DNA of 64,000 bases from an uncultured Actinomycetes bacterium (lineage in GTDB: Bacteria; Actinomycetota; Actinomycetes; Streptosporangiales; Streptosporangiaceae): assembly GCA_963782185.1 (NCBI GenBank), contig CAWAJB010000024.1:48433-112432 (forward strand). The letters are read 5' to 3'. The notes beneath the pieces were generated by a model. That model saw nothing but the letters and a program-made list of their open reading frames with translations. It did no database searches and was not told the DNA's origin. Positions 27,562 through 51,270 of this stretch are shown piece after piece (the first letter of the stretch is position 1; each line of letters starts with the position of its first letter). Both the position numbers and the translations under genes were made by a program.

Positions 27562-27592
27562 GGCACGTCCTCCTCAACGGCTTGATCGCCGG

Positions 27593-28237
27593 TCATGTGA
27601 CGAGCAGGTACAGGCTCTTGCCGGCCAGCCAGAACCCCAGCAGCAGGGAAATCACGATGATCACCTGGTCCTGATGGGTGTCCAGCCAGGTCCGCAGCTT
27701 CTGGATGAGGGCGCCGGCCGCGGCCGGCCGGAAGGCCGCCGACAGCTCCAGGTACAGGAAGCTGGAGGTGGCCAGCAGGCAGAACAGCAGCAGGACCAGG
27801 TATTCCCCGGCGTTCGAGAGCTTGGCCTGGCTGACCGTGGCCGCGCCCGCCGCGACGAGGGTCCACGGCTGGAGGAAGGCGGCCAGCCCGGCCGCGCTCC
27901 ACGCCGAGAACCGGTCCAGCCTGGCCATCCAGGCCGGGGTCTTGCGCGGGCGGCCCCGGCGGCGCTCCTGCCGGACGGCGTAGAGGATCAGCACGACGCC
28001 CAGGGCCAGCTTGATGGCCAGGACCGCGGTCAACGGCGCCGTGCTCGGCGCCGGGGGCTTACCCCCGGTGAGCAGGACCACGGCGGCGATGACCACGACC
28101 AGGCAGGCCAGCCAGCCCAGGATGAAGGCCAGGCCTTTGATGGTGCCCCTGTCCGCGCTGAGGATCAGCAGGAACGCGATGAGCGGGAACGGCTCCAGGG
28201 TGATGCCCAGGCCGATGAGGAGCAGGTCAGCAACCAC
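27593..28237 (-). CDS. GAP family (Sap/DUF2910-like) membrane protein
   Basis: MVADLLLIGLGITLEPFPLIAFLLILSADRGTIKGLAFILGWLACL, with about 6 TMs and a central basic loop RQERRRGRPRKTPAW. It is a paralogue of 44340..44999. Confidence 0.65.
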   Translation of the reverse strand: MVADLLLIGLGITLEPFPLIAFLLILSADRGTIKGLAFILGWLACLVVVIAAVVLLTGGKPPAPSTAPLTAVLAIKLALGVVLILYAVRQERRRGRPRKTPAWMARLDRFSAWSAAGLAAFLQPWTLVAAGAATVSQAKLSNAGEYLVLLLFCLLATSSFLYLELSAAFRPAAAGALIQKLRTWLDTHQDQVIIVISLLLGFWLAGKSLYLLVT

Positions 28238-28252
28238 CCGGCACAGCTCTCA

Positions 28253-28630
28253 TCATCGACACCGCCCCTGCACCTGACCATGCATGGCCAGCGGGGGATG
28301 CTGCCTCACCCGCGGGGGGTGAGGCAGGCGGCCGGCCGTGCGGACATGGCCCCTGAGTTTCCGCAGGTTAAGGCCCAGGCCTGCGTCATAGAGGATGACC
28401 GCCACGGACAGGGACACCAGCGGCTCGAACGCGGGCCCGAGCAGCCGCTCCGGGTTGACGTCGGACGTCAGGGCGCCTGCGATAAAGCCGGCCGGCAGCA
28501 GCACGATGATGGCCGGAATGCGCAGCCGGCTCGCCAGGACCTGGGCGCCGACCGCCAGCACGAGAATGAGGCCGACGCCGATCAGGATCTGGTTAGTGGT
28601 CACGCCTGTCTCCGGTCGTTCCCGGGCCAC
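28253..28630 (-). pseudogene. cation:proton antiporter (CPA1, Na+/H+ exchanger-like), N-terminal ~95-aa fragment
   Basis: ILIGVGLILVLAVGAQVLASRLRIPAIIVLLPAGFIAGALT...LVSLSVAVILYDAGLGLNLRKLRGH matches only the first ~2-3 TMs of this family. The sequence then degenerates (..PHPPRVRQHPPLAMHGQVQGRCR*) and the GAP gene follows 15 nt later. Confidence 0.55.
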
Positions 28631-28891
28631 CTTTTGTTTCCCCGCCGTTCACAATTCCGTGGCCGGTGCTGAACCTTAGGCCACGGCAAAGGCACGACCG
28701 GGCAAATGCTGCCCTGGTCTCACGGTCCCGGCGGGGGAGAGGGGAGTCATCACCCTTATTAGGTGATGAGCTGGCCTTTCCGAGCGGTTAGAAAGGGTGC
28801 GGGATGGATTGCGCATTTCGGAATCACCGCCTGAACCGGGGCCGGGCCGGATGGCGAGTGCTGCGGTGCATCGAGAAGACAGGGGACGACC

Positions 28892-33781: not shown

Positions 33782-35660
33782 TTACCCGAAGGTGGCCGCA
33801 CGGTTAGGTTCCTGATCGGACTCGATCAGCAGCGATACGGCCTCGATCAGGGCCAGGTGCGTGAACGCCTGCGGGAAATTGCCCATGTGCTCGCCGGTGC
33901 TGGTGTCGATCTCCTCCGCGTACAGCTGCAGCGGCCCGGCGAACGACAGCAGCTTCTGGCACAGGGCGCGTGCGCGCTCCGTTTCACCGATCATGGCCAG
34001 CGCACTCACCAGCCAGAAGGAGCAGATGGTGAAGGTCCCTTCCTTGCCCTCGAACCCGGTGTCGGTTCCCTCGACCTTGTAGCGCAGGACCAGGCCGTCC
34101 TCGGTCAGCTCGTCGGCGATGGCCAGCACCGTCGCCCTGATGCGCTTGTCGTCGGGAGGCAGGAATCCCATGATGGGCAGGAGCAGGAGCGACGCGTCGA
34201 GGTCGTCGGTCTCGTCGTGCTGGCGGAACACGCCCCGCTTGGACACGTCCTTGTTCAGGACGTCGGCCTTGATCTCGTCGGCACCGGCCCGCCAGCGCTT
34301 GGCGCGTTCGCCGTCGCCGCGTTCCTCGGCCAGGTCGGCGCCGCGGGAGGCTGCGACCCAGCACATCACCTTGGACGCCGTGAAGTGCTTAGGGTCGCCG
34401 CGGACCTCCCAGATACCCTGGTCGGGCTCGTGCCAGCGCTGCAGGGCGTCGTCTACGAAGATGGCGAGCCCTTCCCAGACGGCGGCGACGATCTGGCCGG
34501 CGCCGGAGTGGAACTGGACATCCAGCGCGTCCAGGATCATCCCCCACACGTCGTGCTGCTGCTGGTTCCAGGCCCCGTTGCCGACCCGGACCGGGCGTGC
34601 GCCCCGGTAGCCGGACAGGTGGTCGAGGGTGTGCTCGGTCAGGTCGCGTTCCCCGCCGATGCCGTACATGATCTGGAGCTCGGGACGGCGGTTGAGGTCG
34701 CCCCCGGTGACCGCCTCCAGGATGAAGCCCCAGTACTCGATCGCTTCCCAGTCGAACCCGAGCCGGTACAGCGAACGGAGCATGAACGCTGAGTCCCTGA
34801 TCCAGGTGAAGCGGTAGTCCCAGTTACGGGCCCCGCCCCAGGTTTCCGGCAGTGAGGTGGTCAACGCGGCCATGATCGCGCCGGTGGGAGCGTAGCTGAG
34901 CCCCTTCAGGGTCAGCGCGCTGCGGTCCAGGTAGGTCTTCCATGGATGGTCAGGAATCTTGGCTGAGCTCAGCCAGTCGCGCCAGAAATCGACCGTGCAG
35001 TTCAGCGTGCGCTGCGCCTCGTCCAGGTCAGCCGGCGCGCTGGCCGCCCGCCCAGGACAGCGCGACGAAAGCCGACTGGCCCTCAGCCAGCGTCGTGCGG
35101 CCGTAGCAGCGAGCCCCCAGCACGCCGAGCGGGATAGAGCCTGCCAGGTCGAGATGCACGTCCCCCTCGGCGGGGGTAATGCTCATAGCGTCGTAGCCGT
35201 CGCCCTGGTAGTTCCACTGGCCAGCCGTCCGCCCGTACTCGAACTGCGGGTTGCAGTTCACGACGGCCTCGACCCGGCCGCTGATGCACGTGGCGATCCG
35301 GACCAGCGCGCCGACGGCGCCGAAATCGGCAGGGGCCCGGTGGTAGTCCGGCCGCCGCCCCTCGTGCTGGACCGGGCCCATGGCCAGGAAGTCCTGCACG
35401 ACCATCCATCCGGTCGGGGTCTGCCAGGTGGTCTCCAGCACATTGGTGCCCGGTACGTACCGGCGATGCTGCGGCACGTGCGTATTGCCGGGACCGAACC
35501 GGAACAACCCGGCCGAGCGGTCCATCAGCGCCCCGAAGACACTCGGGGAATCCGGCCGGGGCAGGCACAGCCACTCGACCGTCCCGTCCGGGGCAACCAG
35601 GCAGCTCTGCTCGCAATTCGACAGGAACCCGTAATCGGCAATCGGCGGGAATGTGCTCAT
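33782..35660 (-). pseudogene. GH15 glycoside hydrolase (glucoamylase / actinobacterial trehalase-like), interrupted by a frameshift
   Basis: The N-terminal 210 codons (IADYGFLSNCEQSCLVAPDGTVEWLCLPRPDSPSVF...FVALSWAGGQRAG*) stop at TGA 35028-35030. The expected continuation (APADLDEAQRTLNCTVDFWRDWLSSAKIPDHPWKTYLDRSALTLKGLSYAPTGAIMAALTTSLPE..NWDYRFTWIRDS) runs in a different frame from about 35040 down to 33782. Confidence 0.85.
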
Positions 35661-35694
35661 CGGCGAGTCACCTTTCGCAGTCGGGATAGGAGCG

Positions 35695-37287
35695 TCAGGC
35701 CATCCGGCTCAGCAGGTGCTCGCCGACGCGGATCGCGTTGGCCATGGCGGTGAGCGCCGGGTTCACGGCCCCGATGCTCGGGAAGAAGCTCGTGTCCACG
35801 ACGTAGAGGTTGTCGATCTCGTGCGCCTTGCAGTCGACGTCGAGTACCGACGTGGCCGGGTCCGTGCCGAACCGGCAGGTGCCCGACTGGTGGGCGACGC
35901 CGGCCACCGGGACGTCCATGCTGGCGTAGAAGTTCTTGCTCAGCACGTGATGGGCGGCGATCCCGATGTGGTTGAGCACCTTCCGCAGCTCGTGGTACAG
36001 CCCGTCCGCCTCGGCGTCGTTCGTCGCCTGGTAGGCGAGGTGCACGTGACCGTCCCGGTCCACCGTCACCCGGTTGTCCGGCTTGGGCACGTCCTCGGTC
36101 GTGAGCCAGAAGTCGACGGCGTGCCGGGCGACCTCCTCCAGGCTCCACTTCGGGGCCAGCTTGGTGAGCGTGGGCTCCTCGCCCTTCATGGCCATCGCGT
36201 TGGACTTGCCGAGCATCTGGATGTTGCCCAGCGGCCATTCCCGGCCGTTGCCCGCGAGGTAGAAGTCGTTCAGCCCGAGCGTCTTCTGGAACACCGTGTC
36301 GTTACGTTCCTTATCGAGCGCCACGATGGCCTTGCTGTTGTGGTACATGTAGTTGCGGCCGACCTGGTCGGACCCGTTGGCCAGGCCAGCCGGGTGCTGG
36401 TCGGAAGCCGACCGGAGCAGGATCCTCGCGCTGTTGGCCGCGCCGGCCGAGACGACCACGATGTCGCCTTCGTAAGATTCCTGCTTGCCGTCGCGGGTTA
36501 CCTGCACGCGGGTGACCGTCCGGCCGGACGGGTCCGTGTCGAGGCGCTCCACCTCCGCGTTCACCAGCAGGGTCACGTTCGGCTGGTCGAGCAGGGGGCG
36601 CACGGCGATGACGTCGGCGTCTGACTTGGCGTGCACCAGGCACGGGTAGCCGTCGCACGTGGCGCAGCGGATGCAGGCACTGAGCGGCCGGTCAGCCTCG
36701 TTCAGCAGGATGCCCACCGGGGCGTGGAACGGATGATAGCCACCGGCCGCCAGCGCATCGGAGATCTGCTGGACCCGCGGTTCGTGCGAGACCGCGGGCC
36801 AGGGGTACTCCTTCGAGCAGTGGCCCTCGGTGGGATCTTCACCATGGGTGCCGTGCACCTGGTACAGCCACTCGGCCTTCGTATACCAGGGCTCGAACTC
36901 GTCGTAGCTCAGCGGCCAGGCCGGCGCGGGGCCGTCGGCGTGCCTGATCTCGCCGAAGTCCTCGGGGCGCAGCCGGTACAGCGCGGCACCGTAGAGCTTG
37001 GTGGCCCCGCCGACGTAGTAGTGCACCTGCGGCTGGAACGCCTTACCGTCAGTGTCGAACCACGAGTCCGGCGAGATGTACCTCCCGTCCACGAACACCG
37101 TGCCGGGATCCCAGTTTCCGAGCTCGCGGGGCAGGAAATTGCCCCGCTCGAGCAGCAGTATCCGCTTGCCCGACGGAGCCAGGGTGTGCGCCAGCGTCCC
37201 GCCGCCCGCACCGCTGCCAACAATGATCACGTCATAGTTTTCAGCCACATACCCGAATGTCCGGGGTTGGTGCACGCGGCACATCAC
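35695..37287 (-). CDS. GMC family FAD-dependent oxidoreductase
   Basis: YDVIIVGSGAGGGTLAHTLAPSGKRILLLERG (FAD ADP-binding motif) and C-terminal NLYVVDTSFFPSIGAVNPALTAMANA. The start may be a few codons downstream of 37287. Confidence 0.85.
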   Translation of the reverse strand: MMCRVHQPRTFGYVAENYDVIIVGSGAGGGTLAHTLAPSGKRILLLERGNFLPRELGNWDPGTVFVDGRYISPDSWFDTDGKAFQPQVHYYVGGATKLYGAALYRLRPEDFGEIRHADGPAPAWPLSYDEFEPWYTKAEWLYQVHGTHGEDPTEGHCSKEYPWPAVSHEPRVQQISDALAAGGYHPFHAPVGILLNEADRPLSACIRCATCDGYPCLVHAKSDADVIAVRPLLDQPNVTLLVNAEVERLDTDPSGRTVTRVQVTRDGKQESYEGDIVVVSAGAANSARILLRSASDQHPAGLANGSDQVGRNYMYHNSKAIVALDKERNDTVFQKTLGLNDFYLAGNGREWPLGNIQMLGKSNAMAMKGEEPTLTKLAPKWSLEEVARHAVDFWLTTEDVPKPDNRVTVDRDGHVHLAYQATNDAEADGLYHELRKVLNHIGIAAHHVLSKNFYASMDVPVAGVAHQSGTCRFGTDPATSVLDVDCKAHEIDNLYVVDTSFFPSIGAVNPALTAMANAIRVGEHLLSRMA

Positions 37288-37453
37288 ACCTGCAGGGTGA
37301 CTCCGGGCCAGTTACTGCGAGCAGGATTCCAGCGTGCCCTCGGAAGAGCCGCGGGTGCGGCCGGTTCTGCGCCGGGCCGGCGGCGGTTACCGCCGGAGCG
37401 GTCACCCCAACCGGGTGAACCGTTTCCCGCGTCACCGTCATAGGTTGCCCCCC

Positions 37454-38338
37454 ATGTCCGCCGATCCATTGCCGAGCTGGCATGAGACCGCCGCGAAGCA
37501 GTCCATCGTGGAGTTCGTCGCCGCCGTGACCCATCCTGGCTCGCCGGACTTCGTCCCGGAGCCGGACCGGGTCGCGGTCTTCGACAACGACGGCACTCTG
37601 TGGACCGAGCAGCCCGTGTACGCGCAGCTCGTGTTCGCGCTGGACCGGGCGGTCCAGCTCGGTCATCCCACCAGCCTGGAAGCGCTGCACGCGGGCGGGA
37701 TGCCGGCCCTGATTGAGCTGATCAAGCTCACTCACGCCGGCATCACCACCGATGAATTCGACGCCCTGTGCCGGAGCTGGCTGGCGTCGGCCCGGCATCC
37801 CCGCTTCGGGCGCCCGTACCCGGCGATGGTGTACCAGCCCATGCTGGAGCTGCTCGGGCTGCTGGACCGCAGCGGATTCTCCTGCTGGATCTTCTCCGGC
37901 GGCGGCACGGATTTCATGCGCACCTGGGCGTCCGACGTCTACGGCCTGCCACCGCACCGGGTGATCGGCAGCGTCGGGGACACCGAGTTCCGCGTCGGAG
38001 CGGACGGCCCTGAACTCGTCAAGGGCAGTGACCTCCAGGTCATCAACGACGGCCCGCAGAAGCCGAGTTCGATCCACCGACATGTCGGGCAGCGCCCGAT
38101 CCTGGCCGCCGGGAACACCGACGGCGACCTGGCCATGCTCCAGTGGACCGCGGCTGGCCCGGGCCGGACGCTGCAGCTGGTCGTCCACCACACGGACGGC
38201 GACCGGGAGTACGCCTACGACCGCGACCCGATCCTGGGCAGCGGCACGGACCAGATCCGCGCGGCCGCCGCCGACGACAAGTGGACCGTGATCGACATGA
38301 CGGCGGACTGGTCAGCCGTCCACCCGCCGGCCGTCTAG
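37454..38338 (+). CDS. HAD-superfamily hydrolase (HAD-IB-like)
   Basis: VAVFDNDGTLW is the DxDGT HAD motif I, and AAGNTDGDLAML is motif IV-like. The internal ATG at 37454 is preferred to the track start at 37334. Confidence 0.65.
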   Translation: MSADPLPSWHETAAKQSIVEFVAAVTHPGSPDFVPEPDRVAVFDNDGTLWTEQPVYAQLVFALDRAVQLGHPTSLEALHAGGMPALIELIKLTHAGITTDEFDALCRSWLASARHPRFGRPYPAMVYQPMLELLGLLDRSGFSCWIFSGGGTDFMRTWASDVYGLPPHRVIGSVGDTEFRVGADGPELVKGSDLQVINDGPQKPSSIHRHVGQRPILAAGNTDGDLAMLQWTAAGPGRTLQLVVHHTDGDREYAYDRDPILGSGTDQIRAAAADDKWTVIDMTADWSAVHPPAV

Positions 38339-38456
38339 CCGGGGCCGGCCCGGCTCTCCGGTGGCATACATGGCGTAACCACCCATGAAGGGGGATGCCC
38401 CGATATCCGAGGGCGGGTGACAGTAAAGCTCAACGACTAACGCCCGGGACGGTGGC

Positions 38457-38738
38457 ATGTCTACTAGCACGGAAAGCAACAGCAGCTGGCCGGAACTGCG
38501 AACCGGCCCGATCATCACGAGCGCCGCGCTCGTCGGGGCCGGCACCCTGATCGCCCTGGCGGGCCTGGCCGTCGGCGGCACGCATCTGTTCGCGGCCACC
38601 CGCCGGTGGATCCAGCAGATGGACGTGCCGCCCAGCGAGCAGGCCAGGATCAAGTGGGCGCAGGCCAGGAGCGCCGCTGCCGCCGGCAACGCCGCCTGGC
38701 GCAACGGGGCCTCGGCCCGCCAGAGCACCGGGGCCTAA
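38457..38738 (+). CDS. small hypothetical membrane protein (one predicted TM) upstream of cydA
   Basis: 93-aa ORF with GPIITSAALVGAGTLIALAGLAVGG and non-random composition (N, S, W, Q, K). It ends 55 nt before cydA. No family recognised. Confidence 0.4.
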   Translation: MSTSTESNSSWPELRTGPIITSAALVGAGTLIALAGLAVGGTHLFAATRRWIQQMDVPPSEQARIKWAQARSAAAAGNAAWRNGASARQSTGA

Positions 38739-38793
38739 GCCCCGGCGGTTTACTGGACGGGCAGCCAATCGTGCACCCAGACCGGGGGAGTAG

Positions 38794-40179
38794 ATGACGA
38801 ACGTCGACCTCGCGCGGTGGCAGTTCGCGTTTGTGACGATCAATCATTTCTTTTTCGTGCCGGTCACGATCGGCCTGGCCTTCCTGACCGCGCTGCTGCA
38901 GACCGCCTGGTACCGCAGCAAGCGGGAGGAGTACCTGCGGCTGACCCGGTTCTTCGGCACCCTGCTGGTCATCAACGTGGCGATCGGCGTGGTGACCGGC
39001 CTGGTCCAGGAGTTCCAGTTCGGGATGAACTGGTCGGCCTACTCGCGGCTGGTCGGCAACATCTTCGGCGCGCCGCTGGCCATGGAGGGGCTGGCCGCGT
39101 TCTTCCTGGAGTCCACGTTCCTCGGGCTGTGGCTGTTCGGCTGGGACAAACTCCCCCGCCGTATTCACCTGCTGACCATCTGGCTGGTGTCGCTGGGCAC
39201 GGTGCTGTCGGCGGCGTTCATCATGGCGGCCAACTCGTGGATGCAGCATCCGGTCGGCTACAAGATGGTCAACGGGAAACCGCAGCTGAACGACATCTGG
39301 GCCGTGTTCACCAACCAGGTGTTCGTCTGGGGATATTCGAAGGTGCTGCTGGCGTCGCTGGTCACCGGCGCCGCGGTGATGCTGGCGGTCTCGGCCTGGC
39401 AGTTGCGGCACGGGGGGGACCGCGAGGTGTTCACCCGGTCGGCGCGGCTCGCGCTGATCGTGCTGGTCCCGGCCATCCTGTTCACCATGCTGGTCGGCGA
39501 TGAGCTCGGGGTGATCGAGGCCAAGTACCAGCCGATGAAGATCGCGGCGGCCGAGGCCCAGTGGTCTACCTGCCAGCCGTGCTCGTTCTCGCTGTTCCAG
39601 ATCGGCGGCGGCAATAACGACCACACGCCCACCCAGATCATCGAGATCCCGCACCTGCTGTCACTGCTGGCCACCAACCACTGGAATGGCAAGGTGATTG
39701 GCCTCGACCCGCTCCAGTCGCAGTACCAGAAACAGTTCGGGCCCGGCTACTACGTGCCGAACGTGTTCATCCAGTACTGGTCCATGCGGGTGATGGCCTA
39801 TATGGGGGTCCTGGTCTTCCTGCTGGGGGCCTGGGGGCTGTGGCTGCTGCGGCGCGGGAAACTCGTGACGTCGCGGCGGTTCCTGTGGGTGGCGATCTGG
39901 GGCGCGGTGCTGCCGTTCCTGATGAACACGGCGGGCTGGCTGCTGACCGAGAGCGGCAGGCAGCCGTGGATCGTGCAGGGCATCATGCTGACCAAAAACG
40001 GGGTCTCGTCCTCGGTCAGCGTCACGTCCATCGTGATCAGCCTGGTGGTTTTCGTGGTGCTGTACGCCACGCTGGCGACCGTCGACCTGATGCTGATGCT
40101 GAAGTACTCCCGCCAGCAACTCCCGCCCGCCCGCGCTGAAGCCGACGCGGACGCGCCCGTCCCGGCCGTCCAGTACTGA
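38794..40179 (+). CDS. cydA: cytochrome bd ubiquinol/menaquinol oxidase subunit I
   Basis: DLARWQFAFVTINHFFFVPVTIGLAFLTALLQTAWY...GVVTGLVQEFQFGMNW...EGLAAFFLESTFLGLWLFGW is the canonical CydA N-terminus. 461 aa. Confidence 0.95.
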   Translation: MTNVDLARWQFAFVTINHFFFVPVTIGLAFLTALLQTAWYRSKREEYLRLTRFFGTLLVINVAIGVVTGLVQEFQFGMNWSAYSRLVGNIFGAPLAMEGLAAFFLESTFLGLWLFGWDKLPRRIHLLTIWLVSLGTVLSAAFIMAANSWMQHPVGYKMVNGKPQLNDIWAVFTNQVFVWGYSKVLLASLVTGAAVMLAVSAWQLRHGGDREVFTRSARLALIVLVPAILFTMLVGDELGVIEAKYQPMKIAAAEAQWSTCQPCSFSLFQIGGGNNDHTPTQIIEIPHLLSLLATNHWNGKVIGLDPLQSQYQKQFGPGYYVPNVFIQYWSMRVMAYMGVLVFLLGAWGLWLLRRGKLVTSRRFLWVAIWGAVLPFLMNTAGWLLTESGRQPWIVQGIMLTKNGVSSSVSVTSIVISLVVFVVLYATLATVDLMLMLKYSRQQLPPARAEADADAPVPAVQY

Positions 40180-40186
40180 GGTCACG

Positions 40187-41275
40187 ATGAACAGCCTGAT
40201 CCCGTTCTGGTTCATCATCATCACCGTGCTGTGGACCGGTTTCTTTGTCCTGGAGGGCTTCGACTTCGGCGTGGGCATGCTGCATGGCGCGGTCGGCCAG
40301 GATGACGCGGGCCGCCGGGCGGCGATCAACACCATCGGGCCGCTGTGGGACGGTAACGAAGTGTGGCTGATCGTGGCCGGGGCCGCCTTGTTCGCCGCGT
40401 TTCCCGGCTGGTACGCCACCATGTTCTCGGGCTTCTACCTGGCGCTGGTGCTGCTGCTGGCCGCGCTCATCGTCCGCGGCGTGTCGTTCGAGTACCGTGG
40501 CAAGCGCGACGCGCTGCAGTGGCGCCGCACCTGGGACGTCTCGCTGACCGCGAGCAGCCTGCTGGCCCCGCTGCTGATCGGGGTGGCACTAGGCGACCTG
40601 CTGCACGGGCTGCCGATCAACTCCCACCAGGAGTACACGGGGTCATTCTGGAACCTGCTCCAGCCGTACGGGGTGTTCACCGGGGTCACCCTGGTGCTGA
40701 TCTGCCTGCTGCACGGCGCGACGTTCCTGGGCCTGAAGACCACCGGCGACATGCACGAGCGCGCGGGGCGGATAGCCCGCCGGGTGGCCCCGGCGACCGC
40801 CGCCGCTGTCGTGGCCTTCGCCATCTGGACGCACGTGACGTCCAGCACGACCTTCTTCGTCAACCCCATCGAACTGCTCGCCATGCTCGCCGTCCTCGCC
40901 GCCGTGTGGCTCGTCTATGAGCGCCGGGACGGCTTCGCGTTCGCGGCGACCACGGTCACGATGGCGGCCTGCATCGTCTCGATCTTCGTTGGCCTGTATC
41001 CCAACGTGATGGTCTCCAGCACCAGCGCGGCCTACAACCTCACCGTGCACAACACGGCGTCCGGAGCCTATTCGCTCAAGGTGATGACGGTCGTGGCCAT
41101 CATTTTCCTGCCGTTCGTCCTCGCCTACCAGACCTGGACCTACTACGTGTTCCGGCGGCGCGTCAGCAAGCAGGAATTCCAGCCCTCACCCCCGCGGGGC
41201 ACACCGCTGGACGCGGCCCGTCCGCGGCCGGCGCACCCCGACGGGACGGCCCCCCCGGCGGAACCGGGACATTGA
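40187..41275 (+). CDS. cydB: cytochrome bd oxidase subunit II
   Basis: IPFWFIIITVLWTGFFVLEGFDFGVGML...IGPLWDGNEVWLIVAGAALFAAFPGWYATMFSGFYL. It starts 7 nt after cydA. Confidence 0.9.
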   Translation: MNSLIPFWFIIITVLWTGFFVLEGFDFGVGMLHGAVGQDDAGRRAAINTIGPLWDGNEVWLIVAGAALFAAFPGWYATMFSGFYLALVLLLAALIVRGVSFEYRGKRDALQWRRTWDVSLTASSLLAPLLIGVALGDLLHGLPINSHQEYTGSFWNLLQPYGVFTGVTLVLICLLHGATFLGLKTTGDMHERAGRIARRVAPATAAAVVAFAIWTHVTSSTTFFVNPIELLAMLAVLAAVWLVYERRDGFAFAATTVTMAACIVSIFVGLYPNVMVSSTSAAYNLTVHNTASGAYSLKVMTVVAIIFLPFVLAYQTWTYYVFRRRVSKQEFQPSPPRGTPLDAARPRPAHPDGTAPPAEPGH

Positions 41276-41293
41276 CCGACACAGGGAGCGGAC

Positions 41294-42670
41294 ATGACCA
41301 CTAATCAAGTTGATGCACTGGTGATCTTCGGGGCCACCGGTGACCTGGCCAAGATCGAGACGTTCCCGGCGCTGGTCGGCCTGGTTGACCGGGGCGTGCT
41401 CAACGTGCCGGTCATCGGAGTGGCGAAGAGCGGCTGGGGGCTGCCGCAGTTCCGCGACTACGCGACCGCGTCGCTGCGGCTCAACCACATGGACCCCCAG
41501 ACGCCGGCCGCGCAGAAGATGCTCGGCCTGCTCCGCTACGTCAACGGGGACCTCGACGACGACGCCACCTACAAGGCCATGTCGGACGCGATCGGCTCCG
41601 GCAGCCGGATCCTGTACTACCTCGAGGTGCCGCCGCCGCTGTTCGGGCGCATCGCGCAGGGCATCGCCACGGCCGGCCGGGCCAAGGACGCGCGGGTCAT
41701 GGTGGAGAAGCCGTTCGGCACCGACCTGGCCAGCTCGCGGCAGCTCAACGACACCATGCACCAGTACTTCGGCGAGGACGCGATCTTCCGGGTCGATGAC
41801 TGGCTGGCCTTCGACCCGGTGGAGAACGTGCTGTTCGTCCGGTTCGCCAACTCGGTCATCGAGCCGCTGCTCAACCGGACCTACGTGGAAAGCATCCAGA
41901 TCACGATGGCCGAGGCGTTCGACGTCGCCGACCGTGGCCGGTTCTATGACCGGACCGGGGCGATCCGCGACGTGGTCCAGAACCACATGCTCCAGGTACT
42001 GGCCACCGTGCTGGCCGAGCCGCCGGACCGGCCACACCTGGCCGACTGGCGGGAGGCCAAGTCACGGGTGATCTCCGCGCTGCGGCCGCTGACCCCGGAG
42101 GACACGGTGAAGGGCCAGTACGCGGGCTACCACGAGGTCAACGGCGTCGACCCGAAATCGACGACGGAGACCTACGTCGCCGTCCGGCTCGCCGCCGACA
42201 CCTGGCGCTGGGAAGGCGTGCCGATCCTGATCCGGGCGGCCAAGTGCATGCCGGTGACCGCCACCGAGGTGAACATCCGCTTCAGGCGTCCGCCCCATGA
42301 CGTATTCGGGATCGATCCGTTCGCCGTCCGCGACTCGCTGCGGTTCCGGGTCTGGCCGGAGACCGCGGTCGGCCTCACCCTGGCCGGCAAGAAGCCCGGC
42401 GGTGGCATGGAGCCGCTGCTGGAGGACCTCACGTTCGCCGGGCAGCCGGGCTCGGACATGCGTCCCTACGACCGGCTCATCGGCGCGGCCCTGGACGGCG
42501 ACCGCTGGCTGTTCGCCCGCCAGGACACGGTCGAGGCCGCCTGGGAGGTCGTGGACCCGGTCCTGGGCGACGTCGGGCCCGTGCATCCCTACGCCCGGGG
42601 CAGCTGGGGTCCCGAGGAGGCCGACCGGCTGCTGCCCAGCCGGGATACCTGGCACGACCCGGCAGGATGA
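41294..42670 (+). CDS. glucose-6-phosphate dehydrogenase family protein (Zwf-like) with a degenerate substrate-binding signature
   Basis: LVIFGATGDLAK (NADP site), VEKPFGTDLASS, RFANSVIEP and GAIRDVVQNHMLQVL are conserved. The position of the RIDHYLGKE signature reads RVDDWLAFD (nt 41789-41815). Confidence 0.8.
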   Translation: MTTNQVDALVIFGATGDLAKIETFPALVGLVDRGVLNVPVIGVAKSGWGLPQFRDYATASLRLNHMDPQTPAAQKMLGLLRYVNGDLDDDATYKAMSDAIGSGSRILYYLEVPPPLFGRIAQGIATAGRAKDARVMVEKPFGTDLASSRQLNDTMHQYFGEDAIFRVDDWLAFDPVENVLFVRFANSVIEPLLNRTYVESIQITMAEAFDVADRGRFYDRTGAIRDVVQNHMLQVLATVLAEPPDRPHLADWREAKSRVISALRPLTPEDTVKGQYAGYHEVNGVDPKSTTETYVAVRLAADTWRWEGVPILIRAAKCMPVTATEVNIRFRRPPHDVFGIDPFAVRDSLRFRVWPETAVGLTLAGKKPGGGMEPLLEDLTFAGQPGSDMRPYDRLIGAALDGDRWLFARQDTVEAAWEVVDPVLGDVGPVHPYARGSWGPEEADRLLPSRDTWHDPAG

Positions 42671-42686
42671 GCGGCGGGAGCATGCG

Positions 42687-44087
42687 ATGACAGACCAATC
42701 GGGACAGCGCCAGGTGGTGATCATTGGCGGCGGCTTCGCAGGCCTGTTCGCGGCCCGCAGGCTGAAGCACGCCGACGCCTCCGTAACCATGATCGACAGG
42801 GCTCAGCATCACGTGTTCCAGCCGCTGCTCTACCAGTGCGCGACCGGCATCATGTCCGAGGGGAAGATCGCCGCCCCGCTGCGTGACCTGCTCAGGAAAT
42901 ACAAGAATGTCGATTGCGTCATGGCTGAAGTGTTCGATTTTGATGTCGTCGGCCGGCGGGTCCTGGCCCGCCGGGTCGGCGGCGAGCAGATCGAGTTCGG
43001 TTATGACGACCTCATCGTCGCCGCCGGGGTGCGGCAATCCTACTTCGGCCATCCCGAATTCGCCCGGTGGGCACCGGGGATGAAGACGGTCTCCGATGCG
43101 CTCGCGATCCGGCGCCGGGTCTACGGCGCGTTCGAGATGGCCGACACGGCCAGCACCCCGGAAGAACGCCGCACCTACCTCACCTTCGCCCTGGTCGGCG
43201 CCGGACCGACCGGCGTGGAACTAGCGGGGCAGGTCCGGGAGGTCGCCACCAAGACCCTCCGCGCCGAATTCCGGAATATCAAACCGGAGGACGCCCGGGT
43301 CCTGCTATTCGACGGCGGCAGCGCGCCGCTGGCCATGTTCGGCCCCAAACTGTCACAGAAAGCGGCCAAGGCCCTGGACGTGCTGGGCGTCGAGCAGCAC
43401 ATGGGATCCATCGTCACCCACGTCGACGAAGGCTATGTACTAGTCCGGGCCCACGACGGCACGCAGACCCGCTACGACGCCGGCACCGTGCTGTGGACCG
43501 CCGGGGTGGAAGCCCCGCCCGTCGCCGAGGCCCTCGCGGCCGCCACCGGCGCCCAGCGCGACCGGGCCGGGCGGATCCTGGTGGAGAAGAACCTCACCAT
43601 CCCCGACCATCCCGAGATCTCCGTCCTCGGCGACATGATGAGCCTGGACAAGCTCCCCGGGGTCGCCGAGGTGGCCATGCAGTCCGGGCTCTACGCCGGC
43701 AACCGCGTCCGGCACCGGATCTCCGGGGACGTGGAAGAAAAGCCGTTCCGTTACCACGACCTCGGCTCAGCCGCCTACATCTCCCGCGGCCGGGCCGTCG
43801 TCTCAGCCGGGCCCCTGCAGGTCGGCGGCTTCGCCGGCTGGGTGATCTGGCTGTTCATCCACATCGCGTTCCTTACCGGCTGGCGCAACCGCGTCGGCGC
43901 CCTCTTCAGCTGGTGGTTCGCCTTCACCCGCGACATCCGCCGCGAACGCACCTTCACCACCCAGCAGATCGAGACGCTGGGCGACGTCTACACGCTCCCC
44001 CTGGGTCCGGCAGGACCGGAGTCAGGCGCTCAATCGTCCGCGGGCCCCAGCGGTATCAGCGGCGGCGGAAAGGCGGCACATCCGTGA
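42687..44087 (+). CDS. ndh: type II NADH:quinone oxidoreductase (NDH-2)
   Basis: RQVVIIGGGFAGLFAARRL and FALVGAGPTGVELAGQV (two dinucleotide-binding motifs), HHVFQPLLYQ, and a C-terminal amphipathic/TM tail. The ATG at 42687 is preceded by GCGGGAG. Confidence 0.85.
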   Translation: MTDQSGQRQVVIIGGGFAGLFAARRLKHADASVTMIDRAQHHVFQPLLYQCATGIMSEGKIAAPLRDLLRKYKNVDCVMAEVFDFDVVGRRVLARRVGGEQIEFGYDDLIVAAGVRQSYFGHPEFARWAPGMKTVSDALAIRRRVYGAFEMADTASTPEERRTYLTFALVGAGPTGVELAGQVREVATKTLRAEFRNIKPEDARVLLFDGGSAPLAMFGPKLSQKAAKALDVLGVEQHMGSIVTHVDEGYVLVRAHDGTQTRYDAGTVLWTAGVEAPPVAEALAAATGAQRDRAGRILVEKNLTIPDHPEISVLGDMMSLDKLPGVAEVAMQSGLYAGNRVRHRISGDVEEKPFRYHDLGSAAYISRGRAVVSAGPLQVGGFAGWVIWLFIHIAFLTGWRNRVGALFSWWFAFTRDIRRERTFTTQQIETLGDVYTLPLGPAGPESGAQSSAGPSGISGGGKAAHP

Positions 44088-44305
44088 CCATAGGCGGCAG
44101 CATCGCGCTCATCGTGATCGGCGCAATTCTCCGATTCGGCATCACATGGAAGCCCGCGCACGTCGATCTCCAGGTCATTGGCGTGATCCTGATGATCGCG
44201 GGGGTGCTCGGCCTGATCATCGCCCTGGTGTTCCTGGCCCGGCGCCGCGGCCGGCCAGCGACCGAGGTGTACGAGGAGCGCCGCTACACCGACCCGCCGG
44301 CCTGA
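44084..44305 (+). CDS. small two-TM membrane protein (DUF6458-like)
   Basis: The GTG overlaps the ndh stop (GTGA). VTIGGSIALIVIGAILRFGI...VDLQVIGVILMIAGVLGLIIALVFLARRR fits my recollection of DUF6458. Confidence 0.5.
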   Translation: MTIGGSIALIVIGAILRFGITWKPAHVDLQVIGVILMIAGVLGLIIALVFLARRRGRPATEVYEERRYTDPPA

Positions 44306-44339
44306 CGGGAGGGCTGCGCCGGCCCGCGCGGGCCGGCTA

Positions 44340-44999
44340 TCAGCCTCCAGCCAGCCCGAAGATGCCGTTGCCGACCATGATGGCGCCGCCCGCGAGCAGC
44401 ACCCCGATGAGGATCTTGTTCCCGTTCGCGCGCAGCCAGCCGTTGAACGCCGTCAGGCGCTGGGTGGTAACGCCGGGCGCGATCAGGTGCAGCAACAGGG
44501 GCAGCCACACGAAAGCCGCATTGATGATCACGACGAGGACGATGGCCACCGTGGTGTATTCGATGTCCGCGTTGGCGGTGGCGATCACCTGCAGGGCGGC
44601 GATGAACGTGAGGCCCGGGGCGAACAGGAGCAGGCCGACGGCGAACGCGCTGGCCGGCGCGGGATCGGCGATCATCCGTGACACGAGCCCCTGCTTCTTG
44701 TCGGGGTCGGGCAGCTTCGGCTTCCGCCGGGCCGCCGCGGCGCCCGCCGCGAGCAGCAGGATGCCGAGGCCGAGGCGCAGGCCGTAGCGGGGGGTGTGCG
44801 CGCTGCGATGGCTCAGGCCGGTGTTACGCAGGATCGCGATGACGACCAGGCCCATGACCAGGCTCATGATGATCGCGCCGGCCAGGTAGAGGGTCCCGAC
44901 CAGCCTGGGCCGGGCCGAGCCGAGGTAGACGGCCGCCACCAGCAGTGCCGTCGGGGAGATCGCGGCCAGCACCGCCAGCCCGGCCGCCTGCAGGATCAT
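44340..44999 (-). CDS. GAP family (Sap/DUF2910-like) membrane protein
   Basis: MILQAAGLAVLAAISPTALLVAAVYLGSARPRLVGTLYLAGAIIMSLVMGLVV, with a central loop ARRKPKLPDPDKKQG. Same architecture as 27593..28237. Confidence 0.65.
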   Translation of the reverse strand: MILQAAGLAVLAAISPTALLVAAVYLGSARPRLVGTLYLAGAIIMSLVMGLVVIAILRNTGLSHRSAHTPRYGLRLGLGILLLAAGAAAARRKPKLPDPDKKQGLVSRMIADPAPASAFAVGLLLFAPGLTFIAALQVIATANADIEYTTVAIVLVVIINAAFVWLPLLLHLIAPGVTTQRLTAFNGWLRANGNKILIGVLLAGGAIMVGNGIFGLAGG

Positions 45000-45162: not shown

Positions 45163-45187
45163 CGCCTCCCCCCGCAGGGGTGAGGCG
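45163..45187 (-). terminator. GC-rich hairpin downstream of the glutamate decarboxylase gene (candidate terminator)
   Basis: cgcctcccccc-gca-ggggtgaggcg, with 10 of 11 stem positions paired. It lies about 65 nt beyond the gad stop (45251). Confidence 0.35.
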
Positions 45188-45250: not shown

Positions 45251-46651
45251 CTAGAGGTGGTTGAACCCCGCCGATTCCTCCTTGGTCATGGGCACGGTGA
45301 CCGGGTGCTTGCCGAAGTGGGCCACCGCGTCGCGGAAGTCGTCGAGCAGCAGGGAGGCCATGTCCTGGCTGACGCCGAGGCGGACCAGGATGCGCTGCAC
45401 GGCTATGCCGGAAGCGGAGCCGGTGAGGGTGTAGGCCGGCACCTGCCACCCCTGGGTGCGCAGCCGGTCGGCCAGGTCGAACAGCGTGTAACCAGGGTCC
45501 TCGCCCTCGCGGATCCGCCAGGTGACCGTCGGGATTCCCGTGTTCGGGTTGCTGTCACACAAGAGCTCGAACGGGCCCAGCTTGACGATCTCGGTGGCCA
45601 GGTACTGGCCGATGTCGTAGGACGCCTGGTGGATCCGGCGGTACCCCTCGTGACCGAGGCGCAGGAAGTTGTAGTAGCTGGCGATGATCTGCCCGGCCGG
45701 CCGGGAGAAGTTGATCTGGAAGACGGGCATGTCGCCGCCCAGGTAGTTGACGTGGAAAATGAGGTCATCGGGCAGCTCGCTGCTGTCCCGGAAAACGACC
45801 CAGCCAACACCCAGCGGAGCCAGCCCGAACTTGTGCCCTGAGGCGCTGATCGACTTGACCCGCGGGAGGCGGAAGTCGAAGACCACCCCGGGCGCGCAGA
45901 ACGGGGCGAGGAAACCGCCGCTGGCCCCGTCCACGTGGATGTCGATGTCCAGGCCGGTGTCGGCCTGCAACTTGTCCAGCGCCTTCGACATCTCCTCCAC
46001 CGGCTCATACGCGCCGGTGTAGGTGACGCCAAGCGTCGGCACGACCATGATCGTGTTCTCGTCAACCCGTTCGAGCATCGAGGCCGGGTCCATCATGTAG
46101 CGGCCCGGTGACATCGGGACCTCGCGCATCTCGATGTCCCAGTAGCGGGCGAACTTGTGCCACACCACCTGCACCGGGCCGCACACCATGTTCGGCCTGT
46201 CCGCCGGCTTGCCTGCGGCCCGGCGCTTGGCCCGCCAGCGCCACTTGGCCGCCATCCCGGCCAGCATGCAGGCCTCGGAGGAGCCGACGGCCGAGGTGCC
46301 CACCGTGTTGGCCGCCTCGGGCGCATTCCACAGGTCGGCCATCATGTGCACGCACCGCTTCTCGATCTCGGCGGTCTGCGGGTACTCGTCCCGGTCGATC
46401 ATGTTCTTGTTGACCGACAGCGCCATCAGGCCAAGAACCTCGGGTTCCTCCCACGTCTGGCAGAACGTGGCCAGGTTCTGCCGCGCATTCCCGTCGAGCA
46501 TCAGCTCGTCCGACACCAGCTGGAAAGCATCCCGGGAGACCGTCCCGTCCTGCGGGAACCGGTACTTAGCGACCGGCTTGGTCAGGTCCCGATCGGCGAA
46601 CACGCAGTCCTCAAGCTCGTCACGGACGGTCTCGCGGTCATGCAATGCCAT
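45251..46651 (-). CDS. gadB: glutamate decarboxylase (PLP-dependent, group II)
   Basis: [43 protein letters not shown]...[19 protein letters not shown] and the PLP-lysine motif [18 protein letters not shown]. The start at 46651 was chosen because AAGGAG lies 9 nt upstream. Confidence 0.9.
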
Positions 46652-46786
46652 GGTCAGCATCTCCTTGATGGGGAGCACTCCCGCAGCCGGTACCCCCCGG
46701 ACGATCGCTGCGTCAGGCACCCGGGCTCTTCGAGGACGGGGCCGCGCTGGTGATGTCGATGGTGGTCGCAGCGCCCGGCGCCGCCA

Positions 46787-47353
46787 TCACCCGGTACGGG
46801 GGATTTGGCGGTGGTCGAGCAGGCCGGCCACGGCCAGGCCGGTGCTGGCCCCGATCAGCGACCCGGTCACGGTGTCGCCCGGGTAGTGCACGCCAGTGTG
46901 TACCCGCGAGTACGCCACCGCGGCGGCCAGGAACCCGGAGCCCAGGGCCACCCACGGCCGCTCCCGGCTGATCGCGGTCGCGAACGCGAACGCCGACGCG
47001 GAATGGCCGGAGGGGAACGAGGTGGAGTCGGGCATCCGCACCTGCCGTACCCCCGGCACGCCGGCCCCGGCCCGGTCCGGGCGGCGCCGGCGGCCAAGCG
47101 GCTTGATGGCCAGGTTCACCAGGGCCGAGGTGGCCCCGATGGCCAGCGTGCCGCGGACCGCGGCCCGCCGTCCGGCCGGGCCGCCTGCCACGGCCATCAC
47201 CGCGGCGAGGGCCAGCCAGATCCGGGACTTGTCGGCGGCCCGGGACAGCCGCCGCAGCGGCTCGTCCAGCGCCGGGGTCGGGGTGGCGGCGATCGCGTCG
47301 TACACGGCCCGGTCCACCGCCGCGAGCTGGCCGACCATTCCCCGTCTGGTCAC
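46787..47353 (-). CDS. PAP2 superfamily phosphatase (membrane-bound)
   Basis: KPLGRRRRP ... PSGHSASAFAFA ... SRVHTGVHYPGDTVTG corresponds to PAP2 motifs C1, C2 and C3. Confidence 0.8.
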   Translation of the reverse strand: MTRRGMVGQLAAVDRAVYDAIAATPTPALDEPLRRLSRAADKSRIWLALAAVMAVAGGPAGRRAAVRGTLAIGATSALVNLAIKPLGRRRRPDRAGAGVPGVRQVRMPDSTSFPSGHSASAFAFATAISRERPWVALGSGFLAAAVAYSRVHTGVHYPGDTVTGSLIGASTGLAVAGLLDHRQIPRTG

Positions 47354-49669: not shown

Positions 49670-51097
49670 TCAGACGTCGTAGTACATCGCGAACTCGTGC
49701 GGCGAGGGGCGCAGCCGCACCGGGTCGAGCTCGTTCGTCCGCTTGTACTCGATCCAGGTCTCGATGAGGTCCGGCGTGAACACGCCTCCCTCGAGCAGGT
49801 AGTCGTGGTCCTCCTCGAGGGTGTCCAGCACCGCCTCCAGCGAGCCCGGAACCTGCGGGATCGCCGCGGCCTCGTCCGGCGGCAGTTCGTACAGGTCCTT
49901 GTCCACCGGCTCGTGCGGCTCGATCTTGTTCTTGATGCCGTCGATGCCGGCCATCAGCATGGCGGAGAAAGCCAGGTACGGGTTGGCGGAGGGGTCGGGG
50001 ACCCGGAACTCCAGGCGCTTGGCCTTGGGGTTCGAGCCGGTGATCGGGATTCGCACGCAGGCGGACCGGTTGCGCTGAGAGTAGACCAGGTTGACCGGCG
50101 CCTCGTACCCCGGTACCAGGCGGTGGTAGGAGTTCACCGTCGGGTTGGTGAACGCGAGCAGTGAGGGCGCGTGCTTGAGCAGGCCGCCCACGTAGTACCG
50201 GCCGGTGTCCGACAGGCCCGCGTAGCCCACCTCGTCGTAGAAGAGCGGCGAGCCGTCCTTCCAGATGCTCTGGTGGCAGTGCATGCCGGAGCCGTTGTCA
50301 CCGAAGATCGGCTTGGGCATGAACGTGGCGGTCTTGCCCGCGGCCCGCGCAACGCTCTTCACCACGTACTTGTAGAGCATCAGGTTGTCCGCCTGCTTGA
50401 GCAGCGGGCCGAACAGGATGTCGATCTCCGCCTGGCCCGCGGTGCCGACCTCGTGGTGCTGCATCTCCACGGTAAGGCCGACCTCGATCATCTTGCGGAC
50501 CATCTCCGACCGCAGGTCGGTGTAGTGGTCGATCGGCGGGACCGGGAAGTACCCGCCCTTGTACGGGGGCTTGGAGCCGAGGTTCCCGCCCTCCTCCTCA
50601 CGCCCGGTGTTCCAGGCGCCCTCGACCGAGTCGATGTAGTAGTAGCCGGCGTTGGCCCCGGTGTCGTAGCGCACCGAGTCGAAGATGTAGAACTCGGCTT
50701 CCGGCCCGAAGAACGCGGTGTCCCCGATCCCGGTGCCCTGCAGGAACGTCTCGGCCTTGCGGGCCACGTTCCGCGGGTCACGGGTGTACGGCTCGCCGGT
50801 CAGCGGGTCGTGCACGAAGAACGTGAGATTCAGGGTCGGGTGCTGGCGGAACGGGTCCATCACGGCAGTGGTCGGGTCGGGCATCAGGAGCATGTCCGAC
50901 TCGTGGATCTGCTGGAAGCCCCGGATCGAGGAGCCGTCGAACATGCGGCCCTCGGTGAAAACCTTCTCGTCGAACGACTCGGTCGGGACCGTGAAGTGCT
51001 GGACGGTGCCCGGCAGGTCACAGAACCTGACATCGACGAACTCAACCTTGTTATCGCCGATGAACTTCAGTACCTCGTCGGCGTTGTTGAACATCAA
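49670..51097 (-). CDS. glnA: glutamine synthetase type I (GSI-beta), with an adenylylation-site tyrosine context
   Basis: [48 protein letters not shown], and DKDLYELPP (GlnE target-Tyr context). Confidence 0.95.
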
Positions 51098-51270
51098 CCC
51101 TCCCTGAACGGAGCTGGCACCGCGTTAGCTGGCACGAGTTGCCTCCCTGGACTGCCGCGGCTGAGGGCCGCGGGAAGGCGGCCACGCAGAGCTGGCCGCA
51201 CGGGGGGCCTGCCTGCGGCAGGAACGTTTCGGACCATAGTTCCCGGCGATTTCCCGCCCGTGTCTCTAGT

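Follow-up and report, generated by a model that had tools for sequence, protein, structure and literature searches.

A glucose-6-phosphate dehydrogenase-like gene and ndh within an actinobacterial cytochrome bd operon: a putative sugar-to-oxygen respiratory module

In Actinomycetota, the genes for cytochrome bd are known from cydABDC operons such as Rv1623c–Rv1620c of Mycobacterium tuberculosis, cydABDC of Corynebacterium glutamicum and cydAB-cydCD of Streptomyces coelicolor. Sugar-fuelled respiration through a short chain is known from Zymomonas mobilis, where NAD(P)H derived from Zwf and the Entner–Doudoroff pathway passes through Ndh and quinone to cytochrome bd, and from heterocysts, where glucose-6-phosphate dehydrogenase (G6PD) fuels respiratory O2 protection. 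The direct oxidation route of Pseudomonas, with Gcd and Gad, is the pathway analogue of FAD-linked sugar oxidation. Here we describe a locus in a 64-kb window (the whole stretch of DNA that was analysed, 64,000 nucleotides (nt) of contig CAWAJB010000024.1 from an uncultured Actinomycetes bacterium of the Streptosporangiaceae; G+C 67–77%), in which cydA and cydB are followed by the gene for a G6PD-family dehydrogenase (ZwfL) and by ndh, encoding a type II NADH:menaquinone oxidoreductase (NDH-2). The Zymomonas and heterocyst systems resemble the proposed module in that reductant from a G6PD-family enzyme enters a short chain of weak coupling whose terminal oxidase has a high affinity, whereas their genes are dispersed and their enzyme is a canonical glucose-6-phosphate dehydrogenase.

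The joining of ndh with cydAB has a precedent in Streptococcus agalactiae, where an ndh-cydAB(-menA) operon encodes what was termed a 'two-enzyme respiratory chain' (PMC6030563). That operon likewise unites NDH-2 and cytochrome bd into a minimal NADH-to-O2 chain, but it belongs to a Firmicute that needs external haem and quinone, its gene order is another, and the unit contains no substrate dehydrogenase, GMC enzyme or glycoside hydrolase (PMC6030563). An earlier interpretation made from the DNA letters only (hereafter the sequence-only reading) had taken ndh to be usually monocistronic; for ndh in one operon with cydAB the streptococcal case is a precedent (PMC6030563). The same reading knew of no description of the gene order as a whole, and we found none of cydAB-zwf-ndh in the literature searched. 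The family of every part and the union of ndh with cydAB in one operon are already known; what is new is that actinobacterial cyd operons contain ndh and a G6PD-family gene whose product has a rebuilt substrate motif, that these recur together with a GMC oxidoreductase and a GH15 glycoside hydrolase, and that the genes have a putative operator in common.

Six open reading frames (ORFs) on the + strand make up the stretch from 38457 to 44305, listed here with a GC-rich hairpin that overlaps its end:

38457–38738, + strand: small1, first gene of the unit, 93 aa, a single transmembrane (TM) segment, family-less
38794–40179, + strand: cydA, cytochrome bd menaquinol oxidase subunit I, 461 aa (PF01654, 2e-151, full length)
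40187–41275, + strand: cydB, cytochrome bd subunit II, 362 aa (PF02322, 5.5e-105; TIGR00203, 352 bits against a cutoff of 117)
41294–42670, + strand: ZwfL, G6PD-family dehydrogenase, 458 aa (PF00479 and PF02781)
42687–44087, + strand: ndh, NDH-2 of the mycobacterial type, 466 aa (Pyr_redox_2, 1.4e-38)
44084–44305, + strand: DUF6458 small protein with two TM segments, 73 aa (PF20059, 31.1 bits against a cutoff of 27)
44296–44337, no strand assigned: GC-rich hairpin where the DUF6458 and SfLAP genes converge (minimum free energy (MFE) –32.1 kcal/mol, z only –1.71)

The gaps between these genes measure, in order, 55, 7, 18 and 16 nt, followed by a 4-nt GTGA overlap that places the DUF6458 start on the ndh stop. 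Shine-Dalgarno-like sites precede ZwfL (GGGAG, 5 nt before the ATG) and ndh (GCGGGAG, ending 6 nt before the ATG), and the next gene after DUF6458, of the SfLAP family (44340–44999), lies convergently on the opposite strand. The sequence-only reading had given these coordinates, gaps, overlap, ribosome-binding sites and strand switch exactly so. It had also proposed one compact unit, which the tight gaps support together with the lack, within the block, of any + strand site resembling a sigma-70 promoter or a terminator and with RNA folding at the cydB-ZwfL and ZwfL-ndh junctions that was no better than in shuffled controls. We conclude that small1-cydA-cydB-ZwfL-ndh(-DUF6458) is a real operon, whose co-transcription we infer and which is probably driven by a single regulated promoter 5′ of small1. 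Two of its proposed members fit less simply: DUF6458 was found in only 9/80 related loci and is not part of the core, and small1 is parted from cydA by a conserved strong hairpin. The hairpin at 44296–44337 has no T-tract and is therefore not a canonical terminator; it is a plausible end of the transcription unit.

The conservation of this gene set was examined by a one-genome-per-species scan with a ZwfL alignment, which yielded 574 matching stretches. The best 80 loci were kept, and their neighbouring genes were counted by tblastn with the window proteins. Nearly all of them are metagenome-assembled genomes (MAGs) from soil or peat that are labelled Streptosporangiaceae or uncultured Actinomycetes; one is from Kitasatospora sp. 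DSM 101779 and one from a Marmoricola MAG. The counts were as follows:

ZwfL followed immediately by ndh: 66/77 loci
cydA-cydB immediately 5′ of ZwfL: 46/76 loci
cydA, cydB, ZwfL and ndh all collinear: 40/74 loci
cydA within 10 kb: 60/80 loci
ndh within 10 kb: 70/80 loci
GMC oxidoreductase gene within 10 kb: 59/80 loci
GH15 gene within 10 kb: 46/80 loci (46–51 of about 80 across counts)
small1 within 10 kb: 37/80 loci
DUF6458 within 10 kb: 9/80 loci

Clustering of all ORFs of the loci gave the same conservation ranking, and the genes that flank the operon in the window proved far less conserved (SfLAP in 16 loci, HAD hydrolase in 11, glutamate decarboxylase in 9). The cydAB-ZwfL-ndh arrangement is far beyond chance, and its conservation in related genomes, on which the sequence-only reading had made the unit depend, extends in rearranged form to other actinobacterial families. 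The cydAB pair is inverted in two loci (L063 and L079), and a third (L017) reads ZwfL-GMC followed by inverted cydBA. The order is GMC-ZwfL-cydAB in Kitasatospora (L077) and GMC-ZwfL-GH15-NDH-2 on a metagenome contig with a 70%-identical ZwfL, and Streptacidiphilus rugosus (L082) holds GH15, cyclase, cydAB, GMC and ZwfL genes together. In Actinomycetospora endophytica, GH15-cydA-cydB-SfLAP diverges from GMC-ZwfL-ndh, which is followed by a fused cydDC-like ABC transporter gene. As side observations, an IS605 OrfB/TnpB-type gene lies between the GMC gene and ZwfL in Streptacidiphilus rugosus (L082:8625-9854), and the SfLAP gene of Actinomycetospora stands directly 3′ of cydB.

The sequence-only reading had described the module as lacking cydDC. 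This is true of the window, where tblastn with confirmed CydD and CydC proteins found neither gene in the whole 64 kb, but not of the module, beside which 22 related loci carry genes of the cydD/cydC family (CydD, TIGR02857, 605 bits; CydC, TIGR02868, 564 bits). Several of them have the pattern cydAB-ZwfL-(ndh)-cydDC: the order is cydA-cydB-ZwfL-ndh-cydD-cydC in one (L046) and cydA-cydB-ZwfL-cydD-cydC in another (L048), with a gap of 14 nt between ZwfL and cydD. Further loci read cydDC-ZwfL-ndh. The fused Actinomycetospora gene, cydDC-like according to tblastn, encodes 1134 aa and begins in a 4-nt overlap with the ndh stop. Because cydDC adjoins the module in relatives, its absence here is a local feature of the window's lineage, and the most fitting view of ZwfL and ndh is that they were inserted into a cyd operon. 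Compared with the actinobacterial cydABDC operon, the locus has a G6PD-family gene and ndh after cydB, and in relatives these separate cydB from cydD. A hairpin and a small TM gene peculiar to the lineage precede cydA, and no cydDC lies within 64 kb.

ZwfL is an unusual member of its family. Its two-domain G6PD fold is complete (PF00479, 6.4e-37; PF02781, 4.8e-79; both full length), and its closest solved relative is PDB entry 4lgv (3.5e-111, residues 6–456), deposited as glucose-6-phosphate 1-dehydrogenase. With the zwf model TIGR00871 it scores 401.2 bits, 0.6 bits over the cutoff of 400.6, and with a second zwf model (NF009492) 392.1, below the cutoff of 428. The sugar-phosphate-binding nonapeptide reads RIDHYLGKE in canonical enzymes and RVDHFLGKQ in 4lgv, compared with RVDDWLAFD in the window's ZwfL and RVDHWLGLD in a sister clade that is about 64–78% identical to the window's. 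Among the 79 loci in which the motif could be read, 61 have DDWLAF[DE] and 18 have DHWLGL[DH]. All members of the ZwfL clade have Phe or Leu in place of the nonapeptide Lys, and 61/79 have Asp in place of the His, while the great majority of 150 diverse G6PD-family representatives, taken as an unselected listing, carry R[IV]DH[YF]LGK. In the 92 representatives then taken as canonical the two residues are invariant by construction, since these were picked by their D-H..-[GAS]-K motif. A position-by-position comparison with this canonical set gave H169D, G172A, K173F(L), W193L, G210D, M241A and E282V as fixed differences. The remaining motifs are intact, with GATGDLA, EKPFG and D..QNH..Q each present in 76/76 clade members, catalytic residues D168 and H231 invariant, and K317, the counterpart of Lys-343, kept.

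Work on the Leuconostoc G6PD by Vought, Cosgrove and their colleagues in 2000 reportedly showed that the nonapeptide His and Lys bind the phosphate of glucose-6-phosphate. Since these two residues are lost while the catalytic and cofactor motifs are kept, we infer that ZwfL is an active dehydrogenase with a different substrate. Judged from its sequence, this substrate is probably not glucose-6-phosphate and more likely an unphosphorylated sugar, e.g. beta-D-glucose that GH15 would release from trehalose or an alpha-glucan. Neither opcA nor pgl, tal or tkt was among the gene families conserved in 81 loci or in the window, and no further copy of zwf, opcA or ndh was seen within the 64 kb. The possibility, raised by the sequence-only reading, that an ordinary pentose-phosphate zwf had come to lie here by coincidence is not borne out by this context or by the altered substrate motif. 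The nearest described enzyme is the mycobacterial Zwf1-type G6PD, represented by 4lgv, presumably the Mycobacterium avium enzyme, and by Rv1121 of M. tuberculosis; it is of the same length class as ZwfL, has no OpcA partner either and carries the same cofactor and catalytic motifs. Rv1121 adjoins gnd2, whereas the context of ZwfL is respiratory and not that of the pentose-phosphate pathway, and the nonapeptides differ as given above.

Several genomes carry the module twice. Five hold one copy of the DDWLAF and one of the DHWLGL type (L004/L057, L006/L061, L007/L052, L022/L074 and L064/L070), and one holds two DDWLAF copies (L030/L032). These paired copies suggest duplication followed by divergence of substrate specificity.

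CydA and CydB are both full-length subunits according to Pfam and resemble the bd oxidases of PDB entries 7d5i (for CydA 3.2e-116, chain A) and 7nkz (molecule name 'CydA'), both presumably mycobacterial. Of the haem-ligand residues expected in CydA, two candidate His, one within INHFFFVP and one within WMQHPVG, are matched by His in the 7d5i alignment, whereas a Met ligand was not located. NDH-2 aligns with 9mqy, deposited as 'NADH:ubiquinone reductase (non-electrogenic)', at 4.8e-120 over residues 5–438 (about 55% identity, read off the alignment), and with 4g9k, deposited as rotenone-insensitive NADH-ubiquinone oxidoreductase, at 4e-32. The C-terminal membrane-anchoring domain (NDH2_C, PF22366) reaches only 18.3 of the 27.7 bits that its cutoff requires; the 9mqy alignment does span that region. 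Both Rossmann GxGxxG motifs are present (GGGFAG and GAGPTG). The second Rossmann strand ends in an acidic residue, reading RVLLFD in 56/68 family members and RVLLLD in 2 more, a type associated with NADH and not with NADPH.

Divergently from the operon, two genes for sugar-directed enzymes lie upstream:

35695–37287, – strand: GMC-family FAD sugar dehydrogenase (GMC_oxred_N/C) with the Cys motif CIRCATCDGYPC
33782–35708, – strand: GH15 trehalase-like glycoside hydrolase (TREH_N and Glyco_hydro_15)

The GMC gene is the most consistently co-conserved neighbour of the operon. Its best PDB chains are 6a2u_B ('Glucose dehydrogenase', 1.8e-37, residues 17–525) and 7w2j_A ('Fructose dehydrogenase large subunit'), which we take to be the catalytic subunits of respiratory-chain-linked sugar dehydrogenases of Burkholderia cepacia and Gluconobacter. 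The alignment runs over the full length of these subunits and a Cys-rich motif occurs at a comparable place; the direct oxidation of a sugar feeding quinone would be an idea common to both systems. The motif, CxxCxxCxxxxC in 52/52 family members, is a putative Fe-S motif whose spacing presumably differs from that of the Burkholderia enzyme. Further differences from these FAD-linked glucose and fructose dehydrogenase complexes are that the GMC N-terminus shows no twin-arginine (Tat) signal by inspection, that no partner subunit (small Tat 'hitch-hiker' or cytochrome c) is found among the conserved neighbours, and that its partners are NDH-2 and a G6PD-family enzyme dependent on NAD(P). Having neither a Tat signal nor adjoining partner subunits, the GMC enzyme is presumably cytoplasmic.

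In the window the GH15 gene is split into two overlapping frames by a frameshift at about 35040–35071, near C/G homopolymer runs, so that it is either a pseudogene or carries an assembly or sequencing indel. The ortholog in a related locus (L001) is intact, with 625 aa, and scores 373 bits with NF041084 (alpha,alpha-trehalase TreH1), below the cutoff of 820. Because PDB sequence searches with the intact protein returned no match even at E ≤ 1, the label trehalase-like rests on Pfam TREH_N and on sub-threshold NCBIfam matches to TreH1 and TreH2. GH15 enzymes invert, releasing beta-glucose, the anomer that G6PD-fold and GMC enzymes use. Type A GH15 occurs only with DAF-type ZwfL (21 loci), and HGL-type ZwfL always with type B GH15 (12/12), a suggestive pairing in counts that are uncorrected for phylogeny.

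These findings can be joined into one proposed route, to which we assign a probability of about 0.6: from a single operon, electrons would pass from sugar to ZwfL, NADH, NDH-2, menaquinone, cytochrome bd and finally O2. ZwfL would oxidise a sugar, probably unphosphorylated, at C1 with NAD(P)+; NDH-2, co-translated with it, would reoxidise the NADH and reduce menaquinone; and the co-encoded cytochrome bd would oxidise the menaquinol and reduce O2. The GMC enzyme would probably feed a second electron pair, from a sugar or a sugar acid, into the same quinone pool. With an unphosphorylated substrate for ZwfL, the route would be independent of ATP. Such a route would agree with the position of ZwfL between cyd genes, the NADH-type NDH-2, the match of the GMC enzyme to respiratory-linked sugar dehydrogenases and the trehalase-like GH15. 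Its physiological role may be low-coupling O2 consumption or maintenance energy under stress; the sequence-only reading had suggested O2 scavenging, redox overflow or survival in hypoxia. If true, this would be a genetically hard-wired minimal substrate-to-oxygen chain in Actinomycetota. The locus shows that a cyd operon can include zwf-like and ndh genes as integral members, and the changed ZwfL motif predicts a new substrate specificity in the very well studied G6PD family. Soil and peat metagenomes are rich in this lineage, with hundreds of homologues, and enzymology and physiology are directly testable in the cultured carriers Actinomycetospora endophytica, Kitasatospora sp. DSM 101779 and Streptacidiphilus rugosus.

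Two elements around small1 bear on how the operon may be controlled:

38374–38403, + strand: inverted-repeat site, window copy AACCACCC-atgaa-GGGGGATG, consensus AATCACCC-N5-GGATGATGCCCG, about 65 nt 5′ of the small1 ATG
38715–38762, + strand: RNA stem-loop over the small1 stop codon, inner stem CCGGGGC-ctaa-GCCCCGG

small1 itself matches no Pfam or NCBIfam model. It has 503 homologues, all 'hypothetical' where named; those with a named organism are all from Streptosporangiaceae MAGs, and the rest are metagenome sequences. The gene lies 5′ of cydA, or directly 5′ of ZwfL where cydAB is absent. An opposite-strand ORF at 38312–38728 was considered in its stead and rejected, being family-less, whereas small1 has its homologues and a conserved position, ATG and ribosome-binding site. 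Folding of 38715–38795 gave an MFE of –41.2 kcal/mol (z = –3.44), and 0/200 shuffled sequences were as stable; most relatives also have a GC-rich hairpin in this position, though of differing sequence. As too little room for a promoter is left behind the hairpin, transcription of cydA must read through it. The hairpin may be an attenuator or a transcript-stabilising element, and it may set the ratio of small1 to cydA expression.

The inverted-repeat site is followed about 14 nt downstream by a conserved ACAGTRA box. A 12-mer of the site occurs with at most 2 mismatches in 36/39 upstream regions of relatives. With a position weight matrix (PWM), the window's copy scores 33.4, the best in the window, while 20 shuffled 21-kb sequences gave 0–1 matches at a score of at least 14. 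The site is presumed to be an operator or activator site overlapping the –35 region. No Rex-, DosR- or CRP-type operator was seen upstream by eye, and the conserved site is a different inverted repeat. In various loci, weaker copies lie 5′ of the genes for GMC, ZwfL (where it is apart from cydB), GH15, NDH-2, CLC and a sulfatase. A looser IUPAC form (2 mismatches) matches the window 9 times against 3.2 expected, and the weaker window copies lie 5′ of the genes for a GH63 enzyme, GMC, SfLAP and glutamate decarboxylase. This pattern suggests one regulon over approximately 28.7–46.8 kb. Weaker CACCC-N5-GGGTG copies were located at 28742–28771 (– strand), 37280–37299 (– strand), 45163–45182 (– strand) and 46783–46807 (both strands). 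MalT-like LuxR regulators are encoded in 36 loci, and one might speculate from this co-occurrence that the GGATGA core of the site is a MalT box read by these nearby regulators.

A bolder form of the proposed route, which we consider less likely than not, makes ZwfL the founder of a new functional G6PD-fold subfamily that oxidises unphosphorylated sugar, most likely the beta-D-glucose set free by GH15. Together with an Fe-S GMC enzyme, NDH-2 and a dedicated cytochrome bd it would then form a cytoplasmic, ATP-independent direct oxidation pathway of acid-soil actinomycetes, with DDWLAF and DHWLGL pockets tuned to different sugars and with control through AATCACCC-N5-GGATGATGCCCG, possibly by the nearby MalT-like regulators.

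Other explanations of the same locus have to be weighed against the sugar-to-O2 chain. ZwfL could be a true G6PD that binds phosphate via other residues. The operon would then link the oxidative step of the pentose-phosphate pathway with a respiratory branch that pumps no protons, much as the sequence-only reading had it and in resemblance to Zymomonas or to G6PD-fuelled O2 protection in heterocysts. The TIGR00871 score just over its cutoff, the strong match to 4lgv, the intact catalytic and cofactor motifs, the retained K317 and the nonapeptide His of the sister clade would all agree with this. We nevertheless regard it as unlikely, given that the Lys carried by the great majority of those 150 family representatives is Phe or Leu throughout the clade and the His mostly Asp, that the replaced residues reportedly bind the substrate phosphate in the Leuconostoc enzyme, that opcA, pgl and glucokinase are not in the conserved set, and that the co-conserved GH15 would release free glucose and not glucose-6-phosphate. 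Rather more improbable, in our estimate, is a co-regulated island for acid, hypoxia or oxidative stress in which each product acts alone and no dedicated substrate-to-O2 chain exists: cytochrome bd would serve tolerance of O2, reactive oxygen species and sulfide, NDH-2 redox balance, ZwfL the supply of reductant and GH15 compatible-solute turnover. The IUPAC matches in front of the glutamate decarboxylase, SfLAP, GMC and GH63 genes of the window are in line with such an island, as are the PWM sites 5′ of CLC, sulfatase and other genes in relatives, the richness of the loci in CLC channels, DUF1269, ion channels and glutamate decarboxylase, and the origin of the MAGs from soils and peat. Yet a loose regulon would not need anything nearly as tight as the adjacency of ZwfL and ndh in 66/77 loci, where the two lie tens of nt apart, or as the place of ZwfL between cydB and cydD (L046 and L048), and conservation of the stress genes falls far short of that of the five or six core genes. 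That a zwf paralogue and ndh merely landed beside cydAB and were inherited vertically, with no functional link, seems very improbable to us. Most of the 80 loci do come from one Streptosporangiaceae-like MAG clade, and the ZwfL ortholog of S. nodosus stands alone, but the association recurs in other orders and orientations in Pseudonocardiaceae, the Kitasatospora/Streptacidiphilus group and the Marmoricola MAG, several genomes hold two module copies with different ZwfL motif types, and the flanking genes turn over while the core stays. The recurrence and adjacency counts largely refute such an accident.

A number of observations nevertheless weigh against the sugar-to-O2 chain itself. The position that sets NADP preference in ZwfL carries a Lys (GVAKS), so that NADPH is a possible product, while NDH-2 looks NADH-specific. 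ZwfL still lies just over the zwf equivalog cutoff of TIGR00871, and the DHWLGL sister clade, in which the His is kept, might still bind glucose-6-phosphate weakly. The structure predicted for ZwfL from an 11-sequence alignment (mean predicted local distance difference test score 48.2, predicted template modelling score 0.46) was too poor for inspection of the pocket. Given the conserved hairpin before cydA, small1 may be a partly separate transcript. In about 20/80 loci ZwfL occurs without cydAB, as it does by itself in S. nodosus, and the counts are not phylogenetically independent because most of the 80 loci represent one family-level clade. The PWM of the upstream site found no match in the loci of the cultured genera, making this regulatory element lineage-specific.

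The operon is the core of a larger neighbourhood of acid-soil and peat actinomycetes that comprises GH15, GMC, often cydDC and often MalT-like regulators. Further upstream in the window lie genes for a GH63/MGH-like hydrolase and for a GlgX debranching enzyme, the latter scoring 785 bits (cutoff 641). Recurring beside the module are a cyclase-family metal hydrolase (PF04199, 23 loci) and a GhrB-like 2-hydroxyacid dehydrogenase, a 2-ketoacid reductase (7 loci and the Streptacidiphilus rugosus locus). One may speculate that the former is a lactonase and the latter reduces ketogluconate, both in a gluconate/ketogluconate branch. The gene for a HAD-family hydrolase (PF12710; 37334–38338, + strand) is placed after the GMC gene and before the inverted-repeat site of the operon and occurs in 11 related loci; its product could be a putative sugar-phosphate phosphatase supplying free sugar.

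The module is also flanked by a glutamate decarboxylase gene (45251–46720, – strand; TIGR01788, 620 bits), and a CLC-type channel and two SfLAP-family membrane proteins are encoded nearby (26182–27573, 27593–28249 and 44340–44999, all on the – strand). This set resembles acid-resistance genes and fits the acid-soil or peat origin of the related MAGs. A 131-aa ORF at 28253–28648 (– strand) matches only the first ~70 positions of a Na+/H+ exchanger model and is probably a gene fragment.

On a larger scale, the sugar and respiratory genes fall within a stretch of low G+C at approximately 23000–49600 (67–70%, against 72–77% in most of the flanks) that is bounded by glnE (19862–23053) and a glutamine synthetase gene (49670–51124). 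Genes of these two kinds adjoin in many actinomycetes, and the stretch looks like a flexible island inserted in a core gln region. Outside it, an AfsR/SARP-type regulator gene (16407–19667, + strand; 1086 aa, with Trans_reg_C, BTAD, NB-ARC and TPR domains) sits between a glutamine-synthetase-like gene (14890–16368) and glnE.

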